A stretch of 64,000 nt of DNA from an uncultured Planctomycetaceae bacterium (lineage in GTDB: Bacteria; Planctomycetota; Planctomycetia; Planctomycetales; Planctomycetaceae). The notes under the pieces were generated by a model. It saw only the letters and a list, made by a program, of their open reading frames with translations. It searched no databases and was not told where the DNA came from. Made by a program: the position numbers and the translations under genes. The stretch spans positions 64,001-128,000 of the forward strand of contig CAWFGE010000017.1 of the NCBI GenBank assembly GCA_963815195.1. Direction: 5' to 3'. Positions 1 through 12,348 of this stretch are shown piece after piece; the first letter of the stretch is position 1, and every line of letters begins with the position of its first letter.

Positions 1-321
1 CCGGCAAATGATGCCTTCCGCTGCGCCCAGGAACAATCCCACCGATCCCGCCACCACAGGGAACATAAACAACGCGGCCAGATCCACATCGTTCCCGATG
101 CGGTTGTCGTCGAAGAACGGCTCTAAAATCAGCCAGCCAAGGATCCCGCCCACCATCGCGGCGATCGACAAGTAAAACCAGTTGGCGTAGATCACGCGGA
201 TCAGCCAGGGCTGATCGCTCAGCGGGCCGACGTCTCGCTGGAGGTACGCCTGAAGCTCGACATACTCATCCACCGCGGGAGCGTGCAGGTCGCGTTGGCT
301 GATGCGAATGGGATCGGACAC
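1..321 (-). CDS. multi-pass membrane protein, 4th gene of the Ubl operon (3' end off the window)
   Basis: Manual translation from GTG at 321 with a GAGGA RBS: MSDPIRISQRDLHAPAVDEYVELQAYLQRDVGPLSDQPWLIRVIYANWFYLSIAAMVGGILGWLILEPFFDD...ALFMFPVVAGSVGLFLGAAEGIICR; two hydrophobic helices; frame open to position 1. Not in the ORF track. Confidence 0.75.
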   Translation of the reverse strand, partial: MSDPIRISQRDLHAPAVDEYVELQAYLQRDVGPLSDQPWLIRVIYANWFYLSIAAMVGGILGWLILEPFFDDNRIGNDVDLAALFMFPVVAGSVGLFLGAAEGIICR

Positions 322-366
322 GGAGCAGTCCTCGAACAGATTCTTAATGAGCAAGAGAGATTGGGG

Positions 367-1586
367 TTATTTTTCCGCCTGGGCCGGAGCTGGGGATTCC
401 GGCGGCTGTTTTGGCGGGTTCTCGGTTTCTTTCGCCGGGGGCTTGGAACTCTCGTCAACGGGCTTTTTGGTTGTTTTGGGAGCGGCCGCGTTTTCCGGCT
501 TCTTGGTCGAAGCACCATTGGCGGACTTCGAGGAACCGGATTTCCTTTTCAATTTCATCCCCTGCGCCTCGGCCTCCTTTTCCGCGATCAACTGCTCCAC
601 GGCGTTTTGCTCGACGGCGGAAAGTCCATAGACTTCCCTCATGTATCCGATCGTATTGGCGCTCGCTTTGAGATTCTCCGCGATCAGTCGGCGGCGTTTC
701 AGCGCGGCCGCCCGCTCTTCGTCGGAAAGTTCGGCCGACGGAGCCGGCAGCTTTTGGAACTCGCTTTCGATGAGATGCAAGTGCTGTTCGATGGCGGACA
801 TCTTCTCTTCGAAGCCCGGCTTCAGCAATTTCGTCACCCCGTAGCGGGCGACCGCTCCCTGCTGAAGCAGGATGGATTCCGATTGGCTCCGCCACCCGGC
901 CAGGAGGTAGCCCAGCAACAACATGCAGATGCACGCCAGGATCGTGGTCACGAACGGCAAAATGCCCGGGTCCCCGGGAGGAGCCCCGGGGCGGGATTCG
1001 CCGGTCGCTTGACCCGGCGTGTCCCGGGGCGAAGCGGTCGAACGCAGCGTGGCGTCCACCGTGCGAACGCGGTCGCCGATCCAATAATGGGCGATGGGCG
1101 TGGGCTTTCCCGCGCGCAGGTGAAGACGCCTTCCAAATCCCGCACCGGATCGACCACATAGGCCACCTGCCCGGGGCCGGAGAAGAAATTCTCGTGGATG
1201 AACACGTCCCGGTCCGAGAGGAAGATCCCAAAGTCGGGGTGCGAATGATACCAGCCGATGATCCGCAGATCGGTATACTTGCTGTCCATCTCCTTGTTGA
1301 TCTGCGACCAGGATTCGTGGGTGAACGTGACCTCGGCGAATTTGCTCGTGGCGCTCTCGCAGCGGATATTTTCGGTGACGAGGGCAAAGGGGCCGTGCTC
1401 GTCTTTCTCCCACTTCCCCACCAGGACGCCGCAAATCTCCACGGAGACATCGGCCTTGGCGTGCTCCTGGATGCTCTTATGCACCGCTTCGGTCATGTGG
1501 AACCGAAAATCCTCTTTCGGCTTGACCGGAAATTTGCCCTCGGACAATTTTTCCTTTTTGAGGTCGCGAATGTCCACGCCGCTCAT
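367..1586 (-). CDS. JAB/MPN (JAMM) metalloprotease with C-terminal TM helix and coiled/low-complexity tail (one frameshift ~1118)
   Basis: EICGVL...GWYHSHPDFGIFLSDRD = JAMM E..HxH..S..D motif in the ORF 948..2054 frame; continues in the ORF 367..1434 frame (GKPTPIAHYWIG...ILPFVTTILACICMLLLGYLLAGW). Its ATG overlaps the E1 stop. Confidence 0.85.
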
Positions 1587-2782
1587 TTCGTTTCTCGCCC
1601 TTCCGCCAAAGCCCCCAAGACCAGGGAACGATCTCCCGCAAATTCGTAGTAATGCTGCTCCATGCCCGCCCGGCCGCCCAGGATGTCCCAGGCCGGCACA
1701 CCCAGCTCTGCGAGCGTCTTGTCCAAAAGGGCCGAGCCGGGGCCCAACGTATGATACAGATTCGGCGTCCGCAGATTTTCGCATTTCGGACATTTTGCCG
1801 CCGACTCGGTGACTTTTCCCAAGGACGCCAGCATCGGCGTGGTTTCCTTGCACGCGGGGCAGGTCAAGGATTCCAGAAGTTCCTGATTGAACTCGATCAC
1901 CGCGCTGGGCCCCAAATCGCTTTCTATCCGCTTGAGGAAGTCGCCCGCCGTCGTGTTTCCGATTTGATTCGGCAATTCGGTGATGGGTTCGTAGGCATCG
2001 TGGGCCGGGCAGTCTTCCAGCTTCGTGTAGTTGACGAGATAGCTTTGATGCCAATTGCCGTCGAACACAAACCCTTGCCCGGAAAGCGTGTCCAGCCCGT
2101 GCAGCATCTTGACGGCTTCGTGGGCCTGGATGCCGGCGATGATCGAGGAAGTCGTCGGCGTGGTGGGGACTTTGCCCTGCTCCATTTCCTCGCGGGACAA
2201 GAGGCGCAGCTCCGGCGGGCTTCGAGCATTTTCCAATCGACTTCGCTCATCGTGCATTCGTAGCAGGGCCCGACCGCGGGATCGAACACGCGGGCCACGC
2301 CGTCGAGCCGTTCGATCGCCCCGTCGATCCAGGGCTTGCCCACGCGGGCCGCGGCCTGATTGATCGCCACGCGGGCTTCGCGGTTGTCGAGTCCGCCGAG
2401 AATAACATCCGCCCAGCGGTACACGCCCAGGCCCAGATCGAACACGATATTCCCGTGAAACGCCTGCGTGCGGATGTCGGGGTAGATGTCCTTCGCCCGC
2501 TCGGCGGCGACCTCGGCTTTCGGGCGGCCGCAATCGGCGGCCCGGTACAACACCGACCGCGACAGGTTCGAGTTCTCGATGAGATCGAGGTCGGCCACAA
2601 ACAGATTCCCGACCCCCAACAGCGCCAGGTTTTTGATCAGCTGCGTTTCCGAGCGCACCCGCCCCGATCACCAGCGCGTTCGCCGCCGCCAATCGCTCCT
2701 GGTCCCACCAGCTGATGAGTTCAAACCGTGCAAACCGCCCTTCCTGGGGTTTTAAATCGGTCAACCGCAATACGTCATTCAA
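1583..2782 (-). CDS. ThiF/E1-like ubiquitin-activating enzyme (frameshifts ~2645 and ~2205)
   Basis: TTG start after GGAGGAG; VIGAGALG, DLDLIENSNLSR, GLDNREAR, CYEC...RRSC (putative catalytic Cys), C-terminal CPAC...CPKC. Assembled from ORFs 1583..2899 and 1924..2658. Confidence 0.88.
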   Translation of the reverse strand: MNDVLRLTDLKPQEGRFARFELISWWDQERLAAANALVIGAGALGNAADQKPGAVGGRESVCGRPRSHRELEPVAVGVVPGRRLRPPESRGRRRAGEGHLPRHPHAGVSREYRVRSGPGRVPLGGCYSRRTRQPRSPRGDQSGRGPRGQALDRRGDRTARRRGPRVRSRGRALLRMHDERSRLENARSPPELRLLSREEMEQGKVPTTPTTSSIIAGIQAHEAVKMLHGLDTLSGQGFVFDGNWHQSYLVNYTKLEDCPAHDAYEPITELPNQIGNTTAGDFLKRIESDLGPSAVIEFNQELLESLTCPACKETTPMLASLGKVTESAAKCPKCENLRTPNLYHTLGPGSALLDKTLAELGVPAWDILGGRAGMEQHYYEFAGDRSLVLGALAEGRETK

Positions 2783-2846
2783 GAATCTGACTCCTCCGGC
2801 ATTGGGGGGGGAATTGTTCCTCCGCAGCATCGCTTTCGGGGAAGCG

Positions 2847-3116
2847 CTACCCGGCTGTGATTTCCGGTTGGAGCCGCAGAACGTCGCCGTCCCGAACATC
2901 CGCCGATGCCAGCGTTTCCGAGTCCAAGAGCTGCCGACCCGAGCCTTTGTGATGGAATTTGTAACTCATGGCCTGCCCGTCCGGGCTGTGGCGGGGCAGG
3001 TTCATGCGTTCGATCAACACGGCAATCAGGCGGTTGACCTCGGCGTCGGCCGGGACTTCGACCATTTGGCGCTTGTTGCCGGTGGCGTCCCAGACTTCGA
3101 TTTTCAGCTCGCTCAT
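2847..3116 (-). CDS. ubiquitin-like beta-grasp protein (YukD/EsaB-like), 89 aa
   Basis: MSELKIEVWDATGNKRQMVEVPADAEVNRLIAVLIERMNLP...LLDSETLASADVRDGDVLRLQPEITAG; Ubl-type pattern with a C-terminal Gly; directly upstream of E1. Confidence 0.85.
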   Translation of the reverse strand: MSELKIEVWDATGNKRQMVEVPADAEVNRLIAVLIERMNLPRHSPDGQAMSYKFHHKGSGRQLLDSETLASADVRDGDVLRLQPEITAG

Positions 3117-3390
3117 AAGATGGATTCGCTCAAACAGGTTTTCGTCGCAGTATGATCTTGGGATTGGAGTGTTTTTGAGGATTGGCTGAACGTTCGGAAA
3201 CACCGATTCTTTGATTGAAAGAATCCCCGCTTTCCGGCAGGAAAAGGGAACCAAAGTGTGCTTCAAATTACCAAATCATACGATACCCCCACCGTGCAAG
3301 GTTGTCTAGGATGTATCTTCACGAAATTCAAGCCGGCAAGCGTCGGAACGCCCGTGGTCTCTCAAATCACGAGGCGGACGGTTGGCCCGC

Positions 3391-3565: not shown

Positions 3566-4987
3566 ATGACCGACAAACAGAATCTTTTCAACAAAGTCTG
3601 GGATTTGCATGCCGTGCGCCAACTGCCTTCCGGGCAGACGCAGCTTTTCATCGGCCGGCATCTGATTCACGAAGTCACCAGCCCGCAAGCCTTCGAGATG
3701 CTCCGCGACCGGGGCCTCAAGGTGATGTATCCCGAGCGGACCCTGGCCACGGTCGATCATATCATTCCCACCGACAACCAGGCCCGGCCGTTTGCCGACA
3801 CGCTCGCCGAGGAAATGATGTCGGCCGTCGAAAAGAACTGCCGGGAATTCGGGATCGAACTTCTCAATCTGAACGACAACCGCCAGGGCATCGTGCACGT
3901 GGTCGGGCCGGAGTTGGGATTGACGCAGCCCGGCATCACGCTGGTCTGCGGCGACAGCCACACCAGCACGCACGGGGCCTTCGGCAACATCTCCCTGGGC
4001 ATCGGCACCAGCCAGGTCGCGTATGTGCTCGCCACGCAAACCTTGGCGTTGGAACGGCCCCGCGTCCGGCGGATTGAAGTCAATGGCGAACTCTCGCCCG
4101 GCGTGTATGCCAAGGATGTGACCTTGCACATCATTCGCATCCTGGGCGTCAAAGGCGGCATCGGTTATGCCTACGAATACGCGGGCGACGTGTTCGACCG
4201 GATGACGATGGAAGAACGCATGACCGTGTGCAACATGAGCATCGAAGGCGGGGCCCGCTGCGGCTACGTCAATCCCGACCAGACGACCGTGGATTATCTC
4301 CGCGGCCGGCCCCTGGTTCCTCAGGGCGAGGAATTTGAACGAGCGGCCGCGTGGTGGCTGAGCCTGGCTTCGGGGCCCGCTGCCGAGTTTGACGATGTGG
4401 TCACCATCGACGCGGCCGACATCGAGCCGACGGTCACCTGGGGCATCAATCCCGGCCAGTCGGTGGGCGTGCGCGAATCGATTCCCTCGCCGGGCAGTTT
4501 TCCGGCCGAGGAACAAGCCGGGGCGGCGGAGGCCTTGGAGTTTATGGATCTCCAGCCCAACCAGCCGGTCCAGGGCATCAAAATCGACGTGGCGTTTATT
4601 GGTTCGTGCACGAACTCGCGATTGTCGGATCTTCGCGAGGCGGCGGAAGTCGTCAAAGGCCGGCACGTGGCCGAGGGTGTCAGGACTCTCGTCGTGCCCG
4701 GTTCGCAGGACGTTCGCCGGCAAGCCGAGGCCGAGGGCTTGGATCAAATTTTCGAAGACGCGGGCTTCGATTGGCGCGGGGCGGGCTGTTCGATGTGTCT
4801 GGCGATGAATCCCGACAAACTCCAGGGCCGGGAAATCTGTGCCTCCTCGAGCAACCGCAACTTCAAAGGCCGCCAGGGCAGCCCCACCGGTCGGACGCTG
4901 TTGATGAGTCCCGCGATGGTCGCCGCCGCCGCCGTCACCGGCCATGTGACCGACGTCAGAGAACTCCTCCAACCCGCCGGCGTCTAG
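3566..4987 (+). CDS. leuC: 3-isopropylmalate dehydratase large subunit
   Basis: [51 protein letters not shown]. Confidence 0.97.
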
Positions 4988-5098
4988 GCGAGCGGGGGGC
5001 GTGAGCCCCCTGGTTTTGTTCGAGTCGATCCGTTCGGCTCGCGATTCAATCCTTCAATCATTCGACGTGACCAGGGGGCTCACGCCCCCCGCTCGCCT
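4986..5098. repeat. REPIN-like element, perfect 29-bp inverted repeat
   Basis: AGGCGAGCGGGGGGCGTGAGCCCCCTGGT (4986-5014) and its exact reverse complement (5070-5098). Confidence 0.85.
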
Positions 5099-5128
5099 TG
5101 AGACAAACTTCAACGGACAATTCTCCAC

Positions 5129-5722
5129 ATGGCAAAAATCGATCAAATCACCGGCACCGGCCTTCCTTTGTTGCTCGACGACATCGACACCGACCGCATC
5201 ATCCCGGCGAGGTACTTGCGCTGCGTGACTTTTGAAGGCATCGGCGAACACGCCTTCGAGGATGACCGCCAGCAAAATCCCAAGCATGCCTTTAACGATC
5301 CCAGGTTCGCGAACGCGTCGGTTCTGGTCGCGGGGCGGAATTTTGGGTGCGGCTCTTCGCGGGAACATGCTCCGCAAGCCCTCATGCGGTGGGGCATCCA
5401 GGCGGTTGTTGCGGAATCGTTTGCCGAGATCTTCTTCGGCAACTGCACCGCGCTGGGCATTCCCGCGGTGACCGCGAAGCGCGCGGATTTGGAAAAAATC
5501 GCCGCCGCCATCGGGGCCGACCCGTCGTTGACCTTGATGGTTGATCTTTTGGAAATGCAACTCCACGCGGGGGAAGAGCAATATCCCATCCAAATGCCCG
5601 AAAGCGCCAAGAAAGCCCTCACCACGGGGCAGTACGATTTCCTCGCGCAACTCTTGGAGGGTGAACCGCAAATCCGCGAGACCGCGAAGACGCTGCCTTA
5701 TCTCAATCATTTCCAAACATAA
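5129..5722 (+). CDS. leuD: 3-isopropylmalate dehydratase small subunit
   Basis: [37 protein letters not shown]. Confidence 0.97.
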
Positions 5723-5743: not shown

Positions 5744-5845
5744 GTGTGCCACTGGCTTTGCCAGTGTTTTTTGCGATGGGCATCAGGACATCGATCAGAC
5801 TTCGGAGCCAACCGGTGAATCGCACTGGCGGAGCCAGTGGCACAC
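5744..5845. repeat. REPIN-like inverted repeat (GTGCCACTGGC family)
   Basis: GTGTGCCACTGGCTTTGCCAGTG ... CACTGGCGGAGCCAGTGGCACAC. Confidence 0.75.
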
Positions 5846-6006
5846 CCGCGGTTCGCGGTTTCGCAAAGGATGTCGGACAAACAAAAGGTCTGGACTTTTC
5901 GAACGAGGGACTTTTATACTGGATTGAGTTCGGGACGGTTGCTTTTCTGAGCCATCGCCTGTGCGCTCGGGAGTCATTCAATCATTCGATGAGTCGGACG
6001 GTTGCC

Positions 6007-7152
6007 ATGTTCCTGCATGACACGCATCTTCCGCAGATTCTTCCGCCCTCCGCCTACACCAGCCAGGACCAATTCGATCGCGAGATCGAAACGCTCTTCA
6101 AGCCGGCCTGGCATCTGGTGGGGTCGTTCTCCGAGCTGCCCCGCGACGGGGATTACCTCACCACGACCGTTCTCGATCACCCGTTGCTCGTGTGGCGGCG
6201 GGATGGGAAATTCCAGACCTTCTTGAACGTCTGCCCGCACCGGTTTTCGCAACTCTCCTGCAAACCGCAGGGGCATTGCCAGCCGCATTTGAAATGCCAA
6301 TACCACGGCTGGGAATTTGATTCCGAAGGCCACACCCGGCTGATTCCCGACGCGCGGAGCTTCAAGCCGATGACCAAGGGGGCCCTCGGTCTCACGAAGA
6401 TCCGCACCGACACCCTCGGGCAGTTGATTTTCGCGAATCTCGACGACGAGGCGCCGCCGCTCCGGGATTGGCTCGGCGAGAAGCCGGCTTTGCTGTTGGA
6501 GGAACTCTTTCCGCCCAACTTCCGATTGATCGCTGCGCTGGATTTCGAGGTAAAGGCCAATTGGAAGTGCCGGATGGAGAACTCGGTCGAAAGCTATCAC
6601 TTGGACATGGTCCATCAAGGCACGTTTGGCAAAACGCCGCCCGTGGAGAACGTGGTCCACGAACTGGAGCCGGGGTGGAGCGTGTATTCTGTGACGGAAA
6701 CGCAGGCGCGCTCGAAAATGGAAGAGCGGTTGGACCGCTGGATGCACCGCCTGGCGGGACGGCCGCAAGACCGGGTGTTTCGCAATTATCTCCGCTACCC
6801 GCATGTGATGTTTTCCAAAGTCCGGCTGTTTCGGTCGATGGAATGGGTGCTGCCGCTTTCGCCCACGCGGAGCCGGCTGGTCTACAAGTTCTTCTGCTAC
6901 GAGAACCCTGCATCCCTGCGGTCGCGGTTGGCTTGCCGGCTGCTGTCTTTCTGGGGCAAGCGGTTTTTCCCGCACGTTGTCTTAGAGGACGCCGCCGCGG
7001 TGGAATGGATGCAGAAAGGCCTGAGCTCGCCCCGGCACGCCTCGGGCGGGGTGATCTCCGCCCGCGAAGAGCGCTGCCATCACTTCCAAGAATACATCAA
7101 AGACGCGACCGCCCCGAAGATGCCCGAACCCAAGCGAGGCCGCTCGATGTAA
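6007..7152 (+). CDS. Rieske non-heme iron oxygenase alpha subunit (choline monooxygenase-like)
   Basis: NVCPHR...CQYHGW Rieske motif; ENSVESYHLDMVH mononuclear Fe motif; ED acidic ligand region. Start could be 5989. Confidence 0.9.
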   Translation: MFLHDTHLPQILPPSAYTSQDQFDREIETLFKPAWHLVGSFSELPRDGDYLTTTVLDHPLLVWRRDGKFQTFLNVCPHRFSQLSCKPQGHCQPHLKCQYHGWEFDSEGHTRLIPDARSFKPMTKGALGLTKIRTDTLGQLIFANLDDEAPPLRDWLGEKPALLLEELFPPNFRLIAALDFEVKANWKCRMENSVESYHLDMVHQGTFGKTPPVENVVHELEPGWSVYSVTETQARSKMEERLDRWMHRLAGRPQDRVFRNYLRYPHVMFSKVRLFRSMEWVLPLSPTRSRLVYKFFCYENPASLRSRLACRLLSFWGKRFFPHVVLEDAAAVEWMQKGLSSPRHASGGVISAREERCHHFQEYIKDATAPKMPEPKRGRSM

Positions 7153-7263: not shown

Positions 7264-8727
7264 TCAGGGGCAATTGACGTTGCAGCTGTAGTTTCGGTCT
7301 TCGAGATGATACAGCCGGGGCCTTTTGGTCGGGCAATCGTAAAGGGCGTCGGCTTTGGCGGTGACGTAAAACGGCCCCACGGGCAGCCCGAACAAGTTGC
7401 AGCAAATGCTGGGGACGGGGTAGCTTGCCTCGGCCCGGACGGCGAACGGCCGCCCCGTGCCTCCTCCGGTACAACTTCCCGCCGAGACGCTGCCCAATGC
7501 CTGGCCGTTGTTGTTGGCCGAGGAACCGGGAGGACACGGAATGTCGGGAATCCCGGTGGGGTGGATAATCAGACCGCGATTCGTGGCCGAGTGGGGCGGC
7601 GGCTGGACGCTGATTCCCCAGGGCGAGGCCACATTGGCGCATTGCAAGCATTGGTTCGAGGTGTCGGTCGTGTCGACAAAATGCCCCGTGCACGTGGTTC
7701 CGTTGCTGAAGCAGACCGTGATTTCCGTCATGCATCCGCCGACGGCGTCGGCGTCGAGTTGGCCGTTGCTGATCGTGTCCGCGACTTCCGCCCCAAACCG
7801 GATGCGGTCGAGAATGTTAAACCGCGCCTGGTCGTTGTTGTCATCGTTGGGAAACACGACCGCCAGCGACCGCGACACGGGATCGCCAACGGCAATCGGA
7901 TCCCCGGTCGAACAGGGGTTGCCGGGATCGACGTTCCGCAAAAAGGTGACCAGCGTCCGGTCGATTCCATACACGTCGGATTGGGCGGACGGGCCGCCTT
8001 TCGGACCGGGGCAATTGTCTTGAAGCATGACATTGGTGTCGTCATCGGTGATGAAGGTGGACACCGTGGGGACGGAGTTGTCGAAATTGAAGCGGGGCAT
8101 GACGGTTTGGAAGTTCATCCCCGCCCCCACGCGGGCTTCGCATTGATCGGGCAGCCGGTAAATCACCCGCAGAATCCGCAAATCGGGAATCGGAAAGATC
8201 GTGGGCTGGAACGAGATGCCCCAGTCGTTGGCGTGCGAGAACGAGCCTTGGGCCGTGGCATCAAACTGGACGTTGCCCACGCCGCAGCCCGGCGTCGCGC
8301 AGCAGTCGAACACGAACTCCGGGTTGTCGGCGATGATCGCTCCGAAGACCAGAACCCCGTTGCTGCAGGCGTTCTGGTTGCAGGGTTCGTTCGCGTCGTA
8401 ATTCAAGGCGGGATCGATGGTTGCCAGGTTCACCTGCACGCCGTTGATCGTGTTCGCCATCGCATAGTTGTTGCCCACGAGGCGCGCGTGCATTGTGTCG
8501 CCGCCTCCGTGATCGCCCCAGTCTTTGACCGCGGCCTGGGCCGCGGCTTCGAGGGCGTCGTGGAGTTCCGTGCGGGCGAGGTACAGGTTGCCGACTTCCA
8601 GGATCACGCACAACAGCGTCAAGATCACCGGAAGCCCCACGATAAACCAGACCATCACCGCCCCCCGCCGGGGGTGCCGAAGAGGACGGGTCTGACTTCG
8701 CCGAGCGGAAACGCGACTGCGCATCAT
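7264..8727 (-). CDS. TadG-like pilus assembly protein, Cys-rich
   Basis: RRGAVMVWFIVGLPVILTLLCVILEVGNLYLARTELHDALEAAAQAA = Tad/TadG N-terminal motif. Confidence 0.8.
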   Translation of the reverse strand: MMRSRVSARRSQTRPLRHPRRGAVMVWFIVGLPVILTLLCVILEVGNLYLARTELHDALEAAAQAAVKDWGDHGGGDTMHARLVGNNYAMANTINGVQVNLATIDPALNYDANEPCNQNACSNGVLVFGAIIADNPEFVFDCCATPGCGVGNVQFDATAQGSFSHANDWGISFQPTIFPIPDLRILRVIYRLPDQCEARVGAGMNFQTVMPRFNFDNSVPTVSTFITDDDTNVMLQDNCPGPKGGPSAQSDVYGIDRTLVTFLRNVDPGNPCSTGDPIAVGDPVSRSLAVVFPNDDNNDQARFNILDRIRFGAEVADTISNGQLDADAVGGCMTEITVCFSNGTTCTGHFVDTTDTSNQCLQCANVASPWGISVQPPPHSATNRGLIIHPTGIPDIPCPPGSSANNNGQALGSVSAGSCTGGGTGRPFAVRAEASYPVPSICCNLFGLPVGPFYVTAKADALYDCPTKRPRLYHLEDRNYSCNVNCP

Positions 8728-8745
8728 AGGCCTTGGAGCGAGGTT

Positions 8746-9285
8746 CTAGGGTAAGGGTTGTTGTTCGTAAATCCAGACGGCGGATTGCCGAATGGAACAG
8801 GTGGAAACATCGTATCCGAACGTGCTTAAGCAGTTGGGAATGTTCCCCGACATCGGCAGACACACGGTCACTCGGACCGCCTGCATCGGCAGCGAACCGA
8901 TCGGACCATACACGGGAACGCAGGGGCAATTGGCGACCGTGGGGTTTGGCTGAATTGGGTTGGCGATCCCCATCACATTGTGTTCCAGGATCACCTGGCA
9001 GGAATTGGTGTAACCGGCGGTGATCAAATACTGATCCACCTGGTTTTTCAGATTGTTGGGCGTCGCCGGCTGGTTGAACGTATCCAGGTTTCCGGTTTCC
9101 GCCGCGAGCTTGGCCCCCAGCCGGCTGGCGAATTCCACATGCTTCGCCGCCGCTAGAATCAATCCAAACTCGACAACCGCGATGAGCAGAATCACCAGAA
9201 TGGGAAACAGCAGCAGGAATTCGAGCGCAACGACTCCCCGTTTCTTGGAGCAGGCTTTTGGGAGGGTTCTGCTTTTCGTTCGCAT
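8746..9285 (-). CDS. TadE-like pseudopilin
   Basis: KRGVVALEFLLLFPILVILLIAVVEFG...ASRLGAK. Confidence 0.85.
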   Translation of the reverse strand: MRTKSRTLPKACSKKRGVVALEFLLLFPILVILLIAVVEFGLILAAAKHVEFASRLGAKLAAETGNLDTFNQPATPNNLKNQVDQYLITAGYTNSCQVILEHNVMGIANPIQPNPTVANCPCVPVYGPIGSLPMQAVRVTVCLPMSGNIPNCLSTFGYDVSTCSIRQSAVWIYEQQPLP

Positions 9286-10143: not shown

Positions 10144-12348
10144 TCAATTCGATAATTCTTCCAGTTCGCGCAAGTACCGCTTAGCCGTTTCCCTGTGTTG
10201 GAAGAACTCTTTCCGCAACTTGGCTTCCCGTTCTGAAAAGTCGGCAGATTTGGCTTCTTGAGCCTTGATCTCCCGCCATTTTTTCAGGCTTTCGTTCATT
10301 GCAGCCCTAGCCTTTTGATACTGCCTCAATTGTTCCGCTCCCCGAACCTTCGACTTCTCACCGTGAATGCCCAACCGGAGATCGGCATCCGAAGTTTCCA
10401 CGGGCAGGATCAGCCAGCCGTCTTTCTTTTTGACGTCCGCTTCTTTCCTGCCTTCGGCGAGAAGCACGCGCTTGTAAAGTTTCCCGCCGCGAAGGAAGAA
10501 GATCACTTCATCCGTCCCCGAATGCGCTTTTTCAAGCGTTCCGCCACCAGAAAAGAGCAACTCATACCGGTGATCACCGGATTCTGTTTCGATTCGCAGC
10601 GCATTCGCATCGTGATCGTCGAACTCCCAATCCTTACCATTGCCAGCCGCTTTTTCCGTCCGTTCCAACCACTCCTTGCGATTGCCCGCCGCGCTTTCCC
10701 TGGATTCCAACGTCTTCCGCAACTCCACAATTTTGCGGGCTTTCTTGTCGGGCGAAGTATCCTTGAGAAAGGATTCCGCCTCTTTCGCCCCGGGCAAGGT
10801 TCCCAGCAAGTCCAAGTCAACGCGGCGGAGCCAGACGGCATCGTCGGTGGTTTTCGCTAAATCGTGTGCCTTTCCATCGGATTTCTCTTTCTCGAGGGGT
10901 AGCACCGAAAGCCCCATCAAGCTGTGATAGAGCTTTCCATCTTTCGCATGGGCTTTGCCCAACGCGCCAAGGTCCAGCCAAACGGAATCGTTTTCATGGC
11001 ATTGCTTGCATTGCGAGGAACGCTCCAAATCCCACACGCGGGCCACGGCCGCATCTGTGTCTAACGCGAGTTCCGCAACGTCCATCGCGTAATCGTCGAT
11101 CGTCGCCTGCAGTTGTTTCCGCACCGCTTGCTGCTGTCGCTCGAGTTGTCGCAACTTGAGCAGCAACATAACTTGCTCGTGCACCACGAGGCTGGCCGTG
11201 ATGATGAGCCGGTTGTTCTTTGTGCGTTTGAGCGAATACGCTCCGCCGGCTTTGGCCCATTCTTTGGGGGCGACTTGTTTGCGGATGTCCTGCTCGACCT
11301 GTTTGGCGTTCAGATCGCCTAAACGGTAGACGATGGTTTTGAGTTCCGTGGCTGTCGGCTCTTCCTGGGCGAAGGCCAATGTCATGGGGACGATGAGGAC
11401 GGCCAGCATCGCCGCGAGGCCGCGGACCGAGAGCCGGCGAACGTGGGAGCCGTGTTTCAGCATTTCAATTCTCCTCGTCAAAGTGATGGCGGGTTGGGCC
11501 GCGGTCGCCCCGATGGGCAGCCGGCCGGTTTGTTGGGACAAAAACTCGACGGTTTCGATCAAGGCGATCGCATACCGGCGGGCGGAATCGGGCAGGGTTT
11601 CCAGGACCAGCGCATCGCAGCATTGCTCTTCCATCTCCCGCAGATTTCGGCGGACCCACCACACGAGCGGGTTCCACCAAAACACGGTGGTCACGGCCAG
11701 TTCCAAAATCCGCACCAGATGATCGCCCCGCCTGATGTGCGCGAGTTCGTGGGCGAGGATCGTTTCTAGCTGAGCCGGGTCCATCTCCGCAGCCAGTTGC
11801 GCCGGCAATAAAATCCGCGGCCGGCCGCACAGCGACCACACCGCAGGCGTGATCCGCACCGGAAGGAGCAAGAGTCTGGGAAGCCGGCGAACGCCCAACC
11901 GCCGGGCGAGGGCTTCCGCCAGGTCTTCCAGTTCCCGCGGCGCCGGCTCGGCCTGCTGGAGCAGTTTGCGAAAACACAGGATCCGAAGAATCGTCATCGC
12001 GAGGATCCCGGCAATTCCCACGATCCACACCGCGAGTAGGATGCCGTTCCAACTCCACGCTGGAGTTTGAGCGGGCTCGCGCGGTGGGGCCGGCATCGGC
12101 GGCGCGGGCAACAATAACCGAGGTTCCAATTCGATCGCGATTTCTTCCACGGGCGGTTCCACAGCAGGCTCTGGCCAGGGAAGCCCGATCCACAACAGCG
12201 GCGGCGTAAACAATTTCAAAAGCACCATCAGCCACAACACGTGGATCAAGTTGGGATTCACGCGGAACCGCGCGATCGCCGCGACCACGCCAGCCAGCAC
12301 GAGAGCCACCAGGCAATTGCTGGCCACGGCTTCCAACAGACCGTTCAT
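10144..12348 (-). CDS. BlaR1-like peptidase M56 with composite C-terminal domain
   Basis: HVLWLMVLLKL, HELAHIRRGDH, WWNPLVW, EEQCCD; the C-terminal part contains CKQCH. Confidence 0.88.
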   Translation of the reverse strand: MNGLLEAVASNCLVALVLAGVVAAIARFRVNPNLIHVLWLMVLLKLFTPPLLWIGLPWPEPAVEPPVEEIAIELEPRLLLPAPPMPAPPREPAQTPAWSWNGILLAVWIVGIAGILAMTILRILCFRKLLQQAEPAPRELEDLAEALARRLGVRRLPRLLLLPVRITPAVWSLCGRPRILLPAQLAAEMDPAQLETILAHELAHIRRGDHLVRILELAVTTVFWWNPLVWWVRRNLREMEEQCCDALVLETLPDSARRYAIALIETVEFLSQQTGRLPIGATAAQPAITLTRRIEMLKHGSHVRRLSVRGLAAMLAVLIVPMTLAFAQEEPTATELKTIVYRLGDLNAKQVEQDIRKQVAPKEWAKAGGAYSLKRTKNNRLIITASLVVHEQVMLLLKLRQLERQQQAVRKQLQATIDDYAMDVAELALDTDAAVARVWDLERSSQCKQCHENDSVWLDLGALGKAHAKDGKLYHSLMGLSVLPLEKEKSDGKAHDLAKTTDDAVWLRRVDLDLLGTLPGAKEAESFLKDTSPDKKARKIVELRKTLESRESAAGNRKEWLERTEKAAGNGKDWEFDDHDANALRIETESGDHRYELLFSGGGTLEKAHSGTDEVIFFLRGGKLYKRVLLAEGRKEADVKKKDGWLILPVETSDADLRLGIHGEKSKVRGAEQLRQYQKARAAMNESLKKWREIKAQEAKSADFSEREAKLRKEFFQHRETAKRYLRELEELSN

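Follow-up and report, generated by a model that had tools for sequence, protein, structure and literature searches.

CBASS Cap2, Bil and Bub are tested bacterial systems built on ubiquitin-like proteins (Ubls), and in PMC10557695 and PMC11601596 they are described without a RING E3, the Bil E1 also without a ubiquitin-fold domain (UFD). Burroughs, Iyer and Aravind 2011 (Mol Biosyst 7:2261) are credited in later papers with predicting operons that join a Ubl with E1, E2, RING and JAB genes in Planctomycetes, Actinobacteria and Acidobacteria (PMC4197634, PMC3417536, PMC7159879). These tri-ligase operons are portrayed as sporadic, mobile and without linked metabolic genes in PMC3417536, and a 2023 preprint still termed them uncharacterised (PMC10557695). 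A full-text literature search with little coverage of subscription journals and none of supplements turned up no experimental work on operons of this kind. Membrane-linked bacterial versions have reportedly been noted. Here we describe an operon of ten genes crossing the left edge of a 64,000-nucleotide stretch (the window) of an uncultured Planctomycetaceae genome, G000:C17:64001-128000, where window position 1 is C17:64001. Its products would carry out Ubl-protein conjugation, a reading to which we give a probability of about 0.85, and this conjugation quite likely takes place at the membrane, through an E1-E2-RING cascade of eukaryotic style that would be anchored in the inner membrane.

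According to the list of open reading frames (ORFs), four co-oriented minus-strand genes fill the first 3.1 kb of the window. A preliminary description based on the window had recognized them as a Ubl ending in PEITAG, an E1, a JAB overlapping the E1 stop and a multi-pass membrane protein, and both the ORFs and Pfam confirm all four. Its remark that no E2 or E3 is visible holds literally for the window, but the E2 and RING genes lie 2.3-5.1 kb to the left, beyond the window edge; the sequence left of position 1, where it had suggested looking, contains an E2, two RINGs and an FHA domain on the same strand. The operon measures 8.8 kb in all, 5.7 kb of it left of window position 1, and its order is Ubl, E1, JAB with one transmembrane (TM) helix, multi-TM/FHA protein, two Zn-ribbon TM proteins, RING-TM protein, RING-TM-serine protease, E2 and DUF2752, as follows (aa, amino acids):

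Window 2847..3116 (-): Ubl (YukD/EsaB-type beta-grasp), 89 aa; Pfam YukD 3.4e-12
Window 1583..2779 (-, approximate start): E1, about 397 aa, single adenylation domain; Pfam ThiF 3.9e-38
Window 367..1586 (-): JAB/JAMM metallopeptidase, one TM helix and a helical/low-complexity tail, about 405 aa; JAB 4.1e-13
Window 1..321 (-): TM/FHA membrane protein, 5' part, six predicted helices; FHA 6e-13
G000:C17:63257-64321 = L001:15257-16321 (-): TM/FHA whole gene, 354 aa, crossing the window edge
G000:C17:62457-63056 (-): double Zn-ribbon/2-TM protein, copy 1; Pfam Zn ribbon
G000:C17:61855-62394 (-): double Zn-ribbon/2-TM protein, copy 2; Pfam Zn ribbon
G000:C17:60990-61694 (-): Zn ribbon, Prok-RING_1 (C4HC3), Zn ribbon and 2 TM helices; Pfam Prok-RING_1
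G000:C17:59580-60962 (-): Prok-RING_1, 2-3 TM helices and HtrA/DegS-like trypsin protease; Pfam Trypsin_2 3.1e-22
G000:C17:58861-59583 (-): E2, HPN..C95 and C-terminal zinc finger; Pfam UQ_con 9.1e-13
G000:C17:58340-58864 (-): DUF2752 membrane protein; Pfam DUF2752 1e-15
Window 3280..3308 (-): possible sigma-70-type promoter 5' of the Ubl gene, weak, 9/12 consensus matches

The genes had been called tightly spaced, which applies to E1 and JAB, where the JAB ATG overlaps the E1 stop codon in the sole overlap among the window genes, but not to Ubl and E1 (about 68 nt apart) or JAB and TM/FHA (about 46 nt); the last two operon junctions are four-base overlaps. The two Zn-ribbon TM proteins are about 60% identical to each other and are zinc ribbons by Pfam (Zn_ribbon_3, 6.4e-9), the Prok-RING_1 matches in the operon numbering two. 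A profile scan of genome contigs yielded at least 23 related loci among the matches listed, and the order Ubl-E1-JAB-TM/FHA-Zn-TM-RING-TM-RING-protease-E2 is kept in 18 of these 23 (17 of the 18 with DUF2752), so the cluster is not due to chance. The promoter and terminator scans of the operon region gave results near chance level, with 5 promoter sites against 2.4 +/- 1.4 in shuffles.

All five core components stand in one operon with their catalytic motifs intact. The E1 consists of one adenylation domain, a CxxC..CxxH zinc site, a catalytic Cys and a C-terminal UFD with a zinc-ribbon insert. None of the 24 rows departs from its GxGxxG, CYEC, Cys 16 residues on or CxxH, and C170, C173, C189, C255 and H258 are likewise the same in 24 of 24 (24 of 30 homologues were aligned, the 6 left out being mostly frameshift-broken). 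When the intact homologue from locus L050 was modelled (mean pLDDT 86.1), the top Foldseek match of the whole E1 was UBA3 over 434 columns, with ThiF second and close behind over the adenylation domain. The C-terminal 128 residues, carrying a CxxC..CxxC insert, reached a pLDDT of 94.5 when modelled alone, and their top seven matches in 48,161 chains were all UBA2/UBA3 UFDs (Z 7.6-9.5, root-mean-square deviation 2.6-4.2, 78-87 residues aligned; other beta-grasp folds <=6.3). The modelled E1 C-terminus is therefore like the ubiquitin-fold domain of UBA2/UBA3, which makes protein conjugation likely; in canonical E1s the UFD is what binds the E2, and BilD has no such domain (PMC10557695). Additionally, loci L045, L047, L050 and L061 (about 10240-10620) and L046:3913-4200 bear an extra zinc-ribbon TM-like gene between Ubl and E1.

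Regarding the E2, residues H86, P87, N88 and C95 are invariant in 17 of 17 aligned proteins (17 of 27 homologues, HPN being seen in all 27), and its best profile matches in the PDB are eukaryotic E2s. The Prok-RING_1 matches of the two RING proteins (7.6e-10 and 2.2e-8) both exceed the Pfam cut-off, and the eight zinc ligands of the RING-TM protein, unchanged in 45 of 45, follow the C4HC3 arrangement given for the prokaryotic RING in PMC11354881. The E2 and the two RINGs are the sole matches to their families in the G000 genome. The RING-Zn-ribbon-2TM family is wide (271 clusters at 50% identity, E<=1e-10, many of 170-240 aa), and K119 of the RING-TM protein, located before the last zinc ribbon and kept in 45 of 45, is a possible acceptor site. 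In the JAB, the Glu, HSH (HxH), Ser and Asp motifs are present in G000 and nearly all rows. The preliminary description had preferred protein conjugation to sulfur transfer, and this choice is borne out by the HPN motif and catalytic Cys of the E2, by the two C4HC3 RINGs and by the UFD of the E1; its concern that an E2 might be missing from the genome falls away, since one (UQ_con 9.1e-13) lies inside the operon.

The Ubl ends in PEITAG followed by a TAG stop, which leaves a free C-terminal Ala-Gly as encoded, and A88 and G89 are invariant in 28 of 28 aligned homologues. The stop directly follows Ala-Gly in 8 of the 29 homologues parsed (31 rows, with 2 frameshifted rows left unparsed), and unrelated tails of 1-28 aa occur in the other 21. 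Such a tail pattern is that of a predicted pro-modifier trimmed by the JAB, and it resembles the pro-ubiquitin of Caldiarchaeum (PMC5654768); the G000 Ubl needs no trimming, yet the JAB is retained, which points to de-conjugation. Among the components compared over 16 complete loci the Ubl is the most conserved, with a median identity to G000 of 84% against 57% for the E2, and its identity across the compared loci is 73-90%. The protein search gave 2294 clusters, the best 120 of 2294 at >=81% identity. The nearest solved sequences are ubiquitin and entries named 'Ubiquitin-like protein', all weak matches; up to E=1 these matches to solved sequences contain neither ThiS/MoaD nor an entry named YukD.

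The membrane coupling proposed earlier gains support from a Kyte-Doolittle scan, in which seven of the ten operon products have predicted TM helices, the Ubl, E1 and E2 being soluble. The JAB has one helix after its peptidase domain (954-898, Kyte-Doolittle 2.43), the TM/FHA protein five or six, the DUF2752 protein one or two, nearly every Zn-TM and RING-TM protein two, and the RING-protease two or three. The FHA domain, at the C-terminus of the fourth gene's product, aligns with GarA/OdhI. In FHA domains an Arg, a Ser and an Asn bind phosphothreonine. Here, Ser replaces the Arg in 22/22 copies, Glu or Ala replaces the Ser in 22/22, and the Asn site is never Asn; the average identity of this degenerate domain is nonetheless 77%. 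Its profile has matches at E<=1e-25 in just five genomes, those with the closest Ubl, four of which had contributed to building the profile. YukB of type VIIb secretion has FHA domains to which YukD binds (PMC12637312), so by analogy it is a fair guess that the FHA domain of the operon reads the Ubl.

Gene content, order, motifs, folds and distribution were computed, and from them we infer all of the chemistry, interactions, targets and trigger. The proposed conjugation mechanism draws on this anatomy and on the reconstituted cascade of Caldiarchaeum subterraneum (PMC5654768). The E1, probably a homodimer, would adenylate the C-terminal Gly of the Ubl and take it as a thioester on its Cys, after which the UFD would recruit the E2 and the Ubl would pass to Cys95. 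The two membrane-anchored C4HC3 RING proteins would then position E2~Ubl so that the tag is placed on lysines in the cytoplasmic parts of membrane proteins, the simplest targets being the operon's own TM proteins. The membrane JAB would trim the pro-Ubl where it is tailed and remove the tag; as the G000 Ubl is made mature, the JAB would here mainly have to de-conjugate. The tag would probably be a reversible mark for assembly or signalling, not a proteasome signal, and for the whole we favour an envelope-sensing module that would respond to stress, damage or contact with an invader and take its input through the RING-TM-protease protein.

The operon forms a self-contained module of patchy distribution that is not tied to defence islands. 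Judging from the labels of the sequence records, carriers among the matches listed include Planctomycetaceae, Lacipirellulaceae and Phycisphaerae, and an intact copy is found in Lacipirellula limnantheis I41 (L050). Of the five listed loci that depart from the common order, three are cut by short contigs, one (Gemmatimonadales) is shorter, and one (deltaproteobacterial) is distant and reordered. The latter, L066:7079-10240, has the order E1-E2-Ubl-JAB and a Ubl 34% identical that ends Ala-Gly-stop. Of 61 genomes including G000, 12 gave a Ubl match, 11 a UQ_con match and ten both, and one of three same-genus genomes (completeness 85-94%) has the operon. Median identities to G000 in the 16 complete loci are 80% for the adenylation part of the E1, 72% for TM/FHA, 66% for JAB and 58% for RING-TM. 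In a tree of three concatenated proteins, from which broken or gene-lacking loci were left out, the Lacipirellulaceae copies are nested among those of Planctomycetaceae, and an approximately unbiased (AU) test rejects a Planctomycetaceae clade (p=0.0003; two more rows dropped, the group named after the first tree was seen, and labels taken from sequence records). The module has probably been transferred between lineages.

Other loci carry related genes in different arrangements. L017-L021 (G049, G053, G039, G054, G059) represent a second operon type, more distant and ordered Ubl-E2-E1-JAB; three of them have RING genes nearby, and the degenerate FHA has no close match there. In G053 the E2 and the JAB are each present twice. 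In the complete genome G008, L080:9870-10538 encodes an E2 41% identical to that of the operon; the Ubl query found nothing in G008, and no other operon gene matched in the 20 kb examined. In G017, genes for an ECF sigma factor and a Ser/Thr kinase lie before the Ubl gene.

The operon lies between leuC/leuD on one side and a prenyltransferase-fold/HEAT gene on the other, and, as noted previously for its surroundings, thiamine, molybdenum cofactor and cysteine-synthesis genes are absent from the operon and its immediate neighbours. The window continues with leuC and leuD, both intact, and then further ORFs (3566-5722, +; 5746-7152, +; 7264-9285, -); from reading them without a family scan, we take one of the ORFs after leuCD to be Rieske-type and two to resemble TadG/TadE-type pilin genes. 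The leuCD neighbourhood had been taken as a hint of a resident role. No leuC or leuD match occurs within any of the 23 listed related loci, leuCD has different upstream neighbours in all three same-genus genomes, and the genes around both leuCD and the downstream gene are rearranged in each of the three, leaving no clean insertion point. Since this neighbourhood is not conserved and the operon itself is patchy (one of the three same-genus genomes), the 'resident' label is unsupported. The companion claim that the operon is not in a defence island fared better. Flanking ORFs were picked with a simple caller from 18 loci, and 55 of the 82 were scanned with Pfam; they are mostly metabolic, transport or planctomycete-specific and differ between genomes, with the exception of four close Lacipirellula-like loci. 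PADLOC matches at E<=1e-15 were obtained for 4 of the 82, all generic enzymes (an IscS-like enzyme, two Ser/Thr kinases and an SNF2 helicase). L059 has adjoining NYN and PIN genes, and two loci have a Ser/Thr kinase upstream.

These data bear on the possibility that the same chemistry serves anti-phage or anti-invader defence, by tagging phage proteins, a host receptor or a membrane effector. The patchy spread (Ubl in 12 of 61 relatives, operon in one of three same-genus genomes), neighbours that differ in most genomes, the NYN and PIN genes beside L059, and a gene tree that mixes orders, with the Planctomycetaceae clade rejected at p=0.0003, would all suit such a role; defence is also the function of CBASS Cap2 and Bil and the predicted one of the other operon families (PMC10557695). 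However, the few PADLOC matches in the flanks are to generic enzymes, the operon proteins themselves match PADLOC weakly (best 2.5e-11, protease domain), the GC content is 60.7% against 59.7% for the genome, and a gene order fixed across classes together with a Ubl identity of 73-90% is unlike fast-evolving defence genes. We therefore regard a defensive role as possible but doubtful, and put reversible, non-degradative envelope signalling or assembly control, as suggested by the gene content, at about even odds.

Destruction of the tagged membrane proteins, in a quality control resembling endoplasmic-reticulum-associated degradation and carried out by FtsH, Clp or the operon protease, appears unlikely. 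It would fit membrane-anchored RINGs and a fused protease, and tri-ligase systems are said in PMC7159879 to be coupled to FtsH systems, or to Pup in some planctomycetes. Against this, the operon has no AAA+ ATPase, a 20S proteasome pair was not found in G000, and operon-bearing G005, G017 and G053 gave no proteasome-family match (FtsH, Clp and Pup were outside this search). G000 has one proteasome-family match, presumably HslV from its motif. A specific form of the signalling reading, which we consider improbable at present, would be bacterial transmembrane signalling that uses ubiquitylation in place of phosphorylation. The DegS-like protease domain would face outward, sense an envelope cue and be joined across the membrane to a RING in the cytoplasm; the RINGs would tag membrane partners with the highly conserved Ubl via the UBA3-like E1-UFD/E2 cascade; and the FHA domain, devoid of a phosphothreonine pocket, would read the tag directly, as the YukB FHA binds YukD. 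If true, this would amount to non-defensive, E3-dependent, proteasome-independent ubiquitin signalling in bacteria.

Three frame breaks, two in E1 (near 2643 and 2203) and one in JAB (near 1117), had been suspected of being errors. A short-read contig of 558 bp aligns to the window with 0 substitutions and departs from it solely at 2203 and 2643; the break at 2643 is also mended by a short-read contig of another study (at depths of 3.6 and 2, the first run perhaps stemming from the source sample). Both E1 frameshifts are assembly errors. The JAB break, which shortens a GG run relative to relatives, is probably another, as the JAB frame runs on unbroken at this point in 17 of 17 listed related loci that yielded both halves. 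For the background, a crude count in which ORFs of 400 kb of the relative G017 were compared with G000 gave 19 breaks in 115 kb, with 17 of 94 genes affected. Decay of the operon in this genome, with the E1 and JAB frameshifts real, is very improbable: at the background rate three breaks in a 2.4-kb stretch have a chance of about 0.008 if the stretch is chosen after the fact, and a same-genus copy loses one base about 6 nt from a window break, but the short-read contigs correct the E1 breaks, the other eight genes are intact, and the chance of at least three breaks in the 8.8-kb operon is 0.18. In all likelihood the operon is intact. In the same-genus copy, L014:4115-4130 (G002), a separate single-base loss falls within the codon of the catalytic E1 Cys, some 6 nt away from the 2203 break, and JAB, RING-TM and RING-protease are broken as well. 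Programmed frameshifting, considered for these two breaks, was rejected: the bases differ, short reads correct the break in the window, and the E1 is in one frame in 18 of 21 related loci among the matches listed.

JAB peptidases also occur in sulfur-carrier systems, and the best NCBIfam models of the E1 are ThiF/MoeB (5.2e-41), with ThiF second in Foldseek, but a ThiS/MoaD-like Ubl working with a ThiF/MoeB-like E1 and JAB is highly improbable, as the NCBIfam scores are all far under the cut-off (140 vs 275), the E2, RINGs and UFD have no place in sulfur transfer, the operon contains no biosynthetic genes, ThiS/MoaD is missing from the Ubl matches up to E=1, and a far better ThiF-family match of the genome lies elsewhere (6e-74). 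G000 has 9 ThiF-family matches in all, several of them outside the operon on C6, C11, C12, C14 and C15.

Some observations weigh against a membrane-tethered E1-E2-RING cascade in an intact operon. The UFD Z-scores barely exceed the level the tool calls common, and Foldseek with the E1 C-terminal domain returned nothing at E<=0.001, though UFDs ranked 1-3. Many eukaryotic RINGs have a basic 'linchpin' residue after the last Cys pair, and the operon RINGs are without a basic residue at that position. In the RING-protease, three helices would put the protease outside and the RING inside; with two or three counted, the side is uncertain. The short-read contigs do not span the JAB break near 1117. 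Finally, the operon is patchy and can be split: in L016/L079 (G017), Ubl-E1-JAB-TM/FHA lies about 300 kb from E2-DUF2752 on one contig.

When compared with known systems, type VIIb secretion shares the Pfam family of YukD/EsaB, and its pairing of YukD with FHA domains parallels the Ubl and membrane FHA of the operon (PMC12637312). YukD is reported (PMC1779556, PMC12637312) to be not conjugated and encoded with FtsK/EssC and WXG100 genes. Type VII identity was rejected, given that no FtsK/EssC or WXG100 gene is among the ten (EssC being sought in the operon, not genome-wide); the genome's one WXG100 match is on another contig (G000:C12:933389-933619), near a 1221-aa ORF. A ThiF/MoeB sulfur-carrier identity was likewise set aside, as an E2 is present and the operon has neither a ThiS/MoaD carrier nor biosynthetic genes. 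Bub (6E/DUF6527) has a bacterial Ubl, E1, E2 and JAB in common with our operon; its own features are absent catalytic cysteines, oxyesters and DUF6527, as outlined in PMC11601596, and it was rejected because Pfam finds no DUF6527 among the ten genes and the E1 and E2 Cys are invariant. Bil (BilABCD) likewise has a separate Ubl, E1, E2 and JAB and a Gly-ended Ubl processed by the JAB (PMC10557695, PMC11601596). In these accounts, BilD is a tandem IAD-AAD-CYS protein without a UFD, the E2 is of the CEHH type and there is no E3. In contrast, our operon has a single adenylation domain, a UFD, an HPN-type E2, two RINGs and membrane anchors, in agreement with the earlier judgement that it is unlike the soluble Bil systems; with an E1 of about 397 aa, one ThiF domain, a UFD-like C-terminus and two RINGs, Bil identity was rejected, and the PADLOC BilD match is weak (5.5e-6).

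The reconstituted Caldiarchaeum subterraneum ubiquitin operon resembles ours in its tailed Ubl, E1, E2, RING E3 and pro-Ubl-trimming JAB (PMC5654768). It is archaeal, with a di-Gly end and a small RING (PMC5654768), whereas the planctomycete operon has an Ala-Gly end, TM-anchored C4HC3 RINGs and JAB, extra membrane proteins and no 20S proteasome found. By its gene content, the operon is of the tri-ligase type of Burroughs 2011, a predicted kind, the class being matched via the descriptions in citing papers. Like that type, it joins Ubl, E1, E2, RING and JAB in a sporadic unit without metabolic genes, and Planctomycetes are named carriers (PMC4197634). Specifically, we found a Ubl with an exposed or exposable C-terminal Gly, an E1 with an adenylation motif and catalytic Cys, an E2 with a catalytic Cys in the same operon, two candidate E3s of the prokaryotic RING type, and a JAB, with no linked metabolic genes and a sporadic spread. 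Compared with the descriptions in the citing papers, the present analysis adds the UFD of the E1, an FHA domain without the phosphothreonine residues in 22 of 22 copies, and the finding of no 20S proteasome. This copy sits in an error-prone assembly and adds little alone, the intact copy of L. limnantheis I41 (L050) being the better object. A UFD-bearing E1, an HPN-type E2 and RINGs are the set defining eukaryotic ubiquitylation, here membrane-anchored. RING-dependent conjugation, if shown, would test a standing prediction and bear on the origin of E3-dependent and of membrane-linked ubiquitylation.

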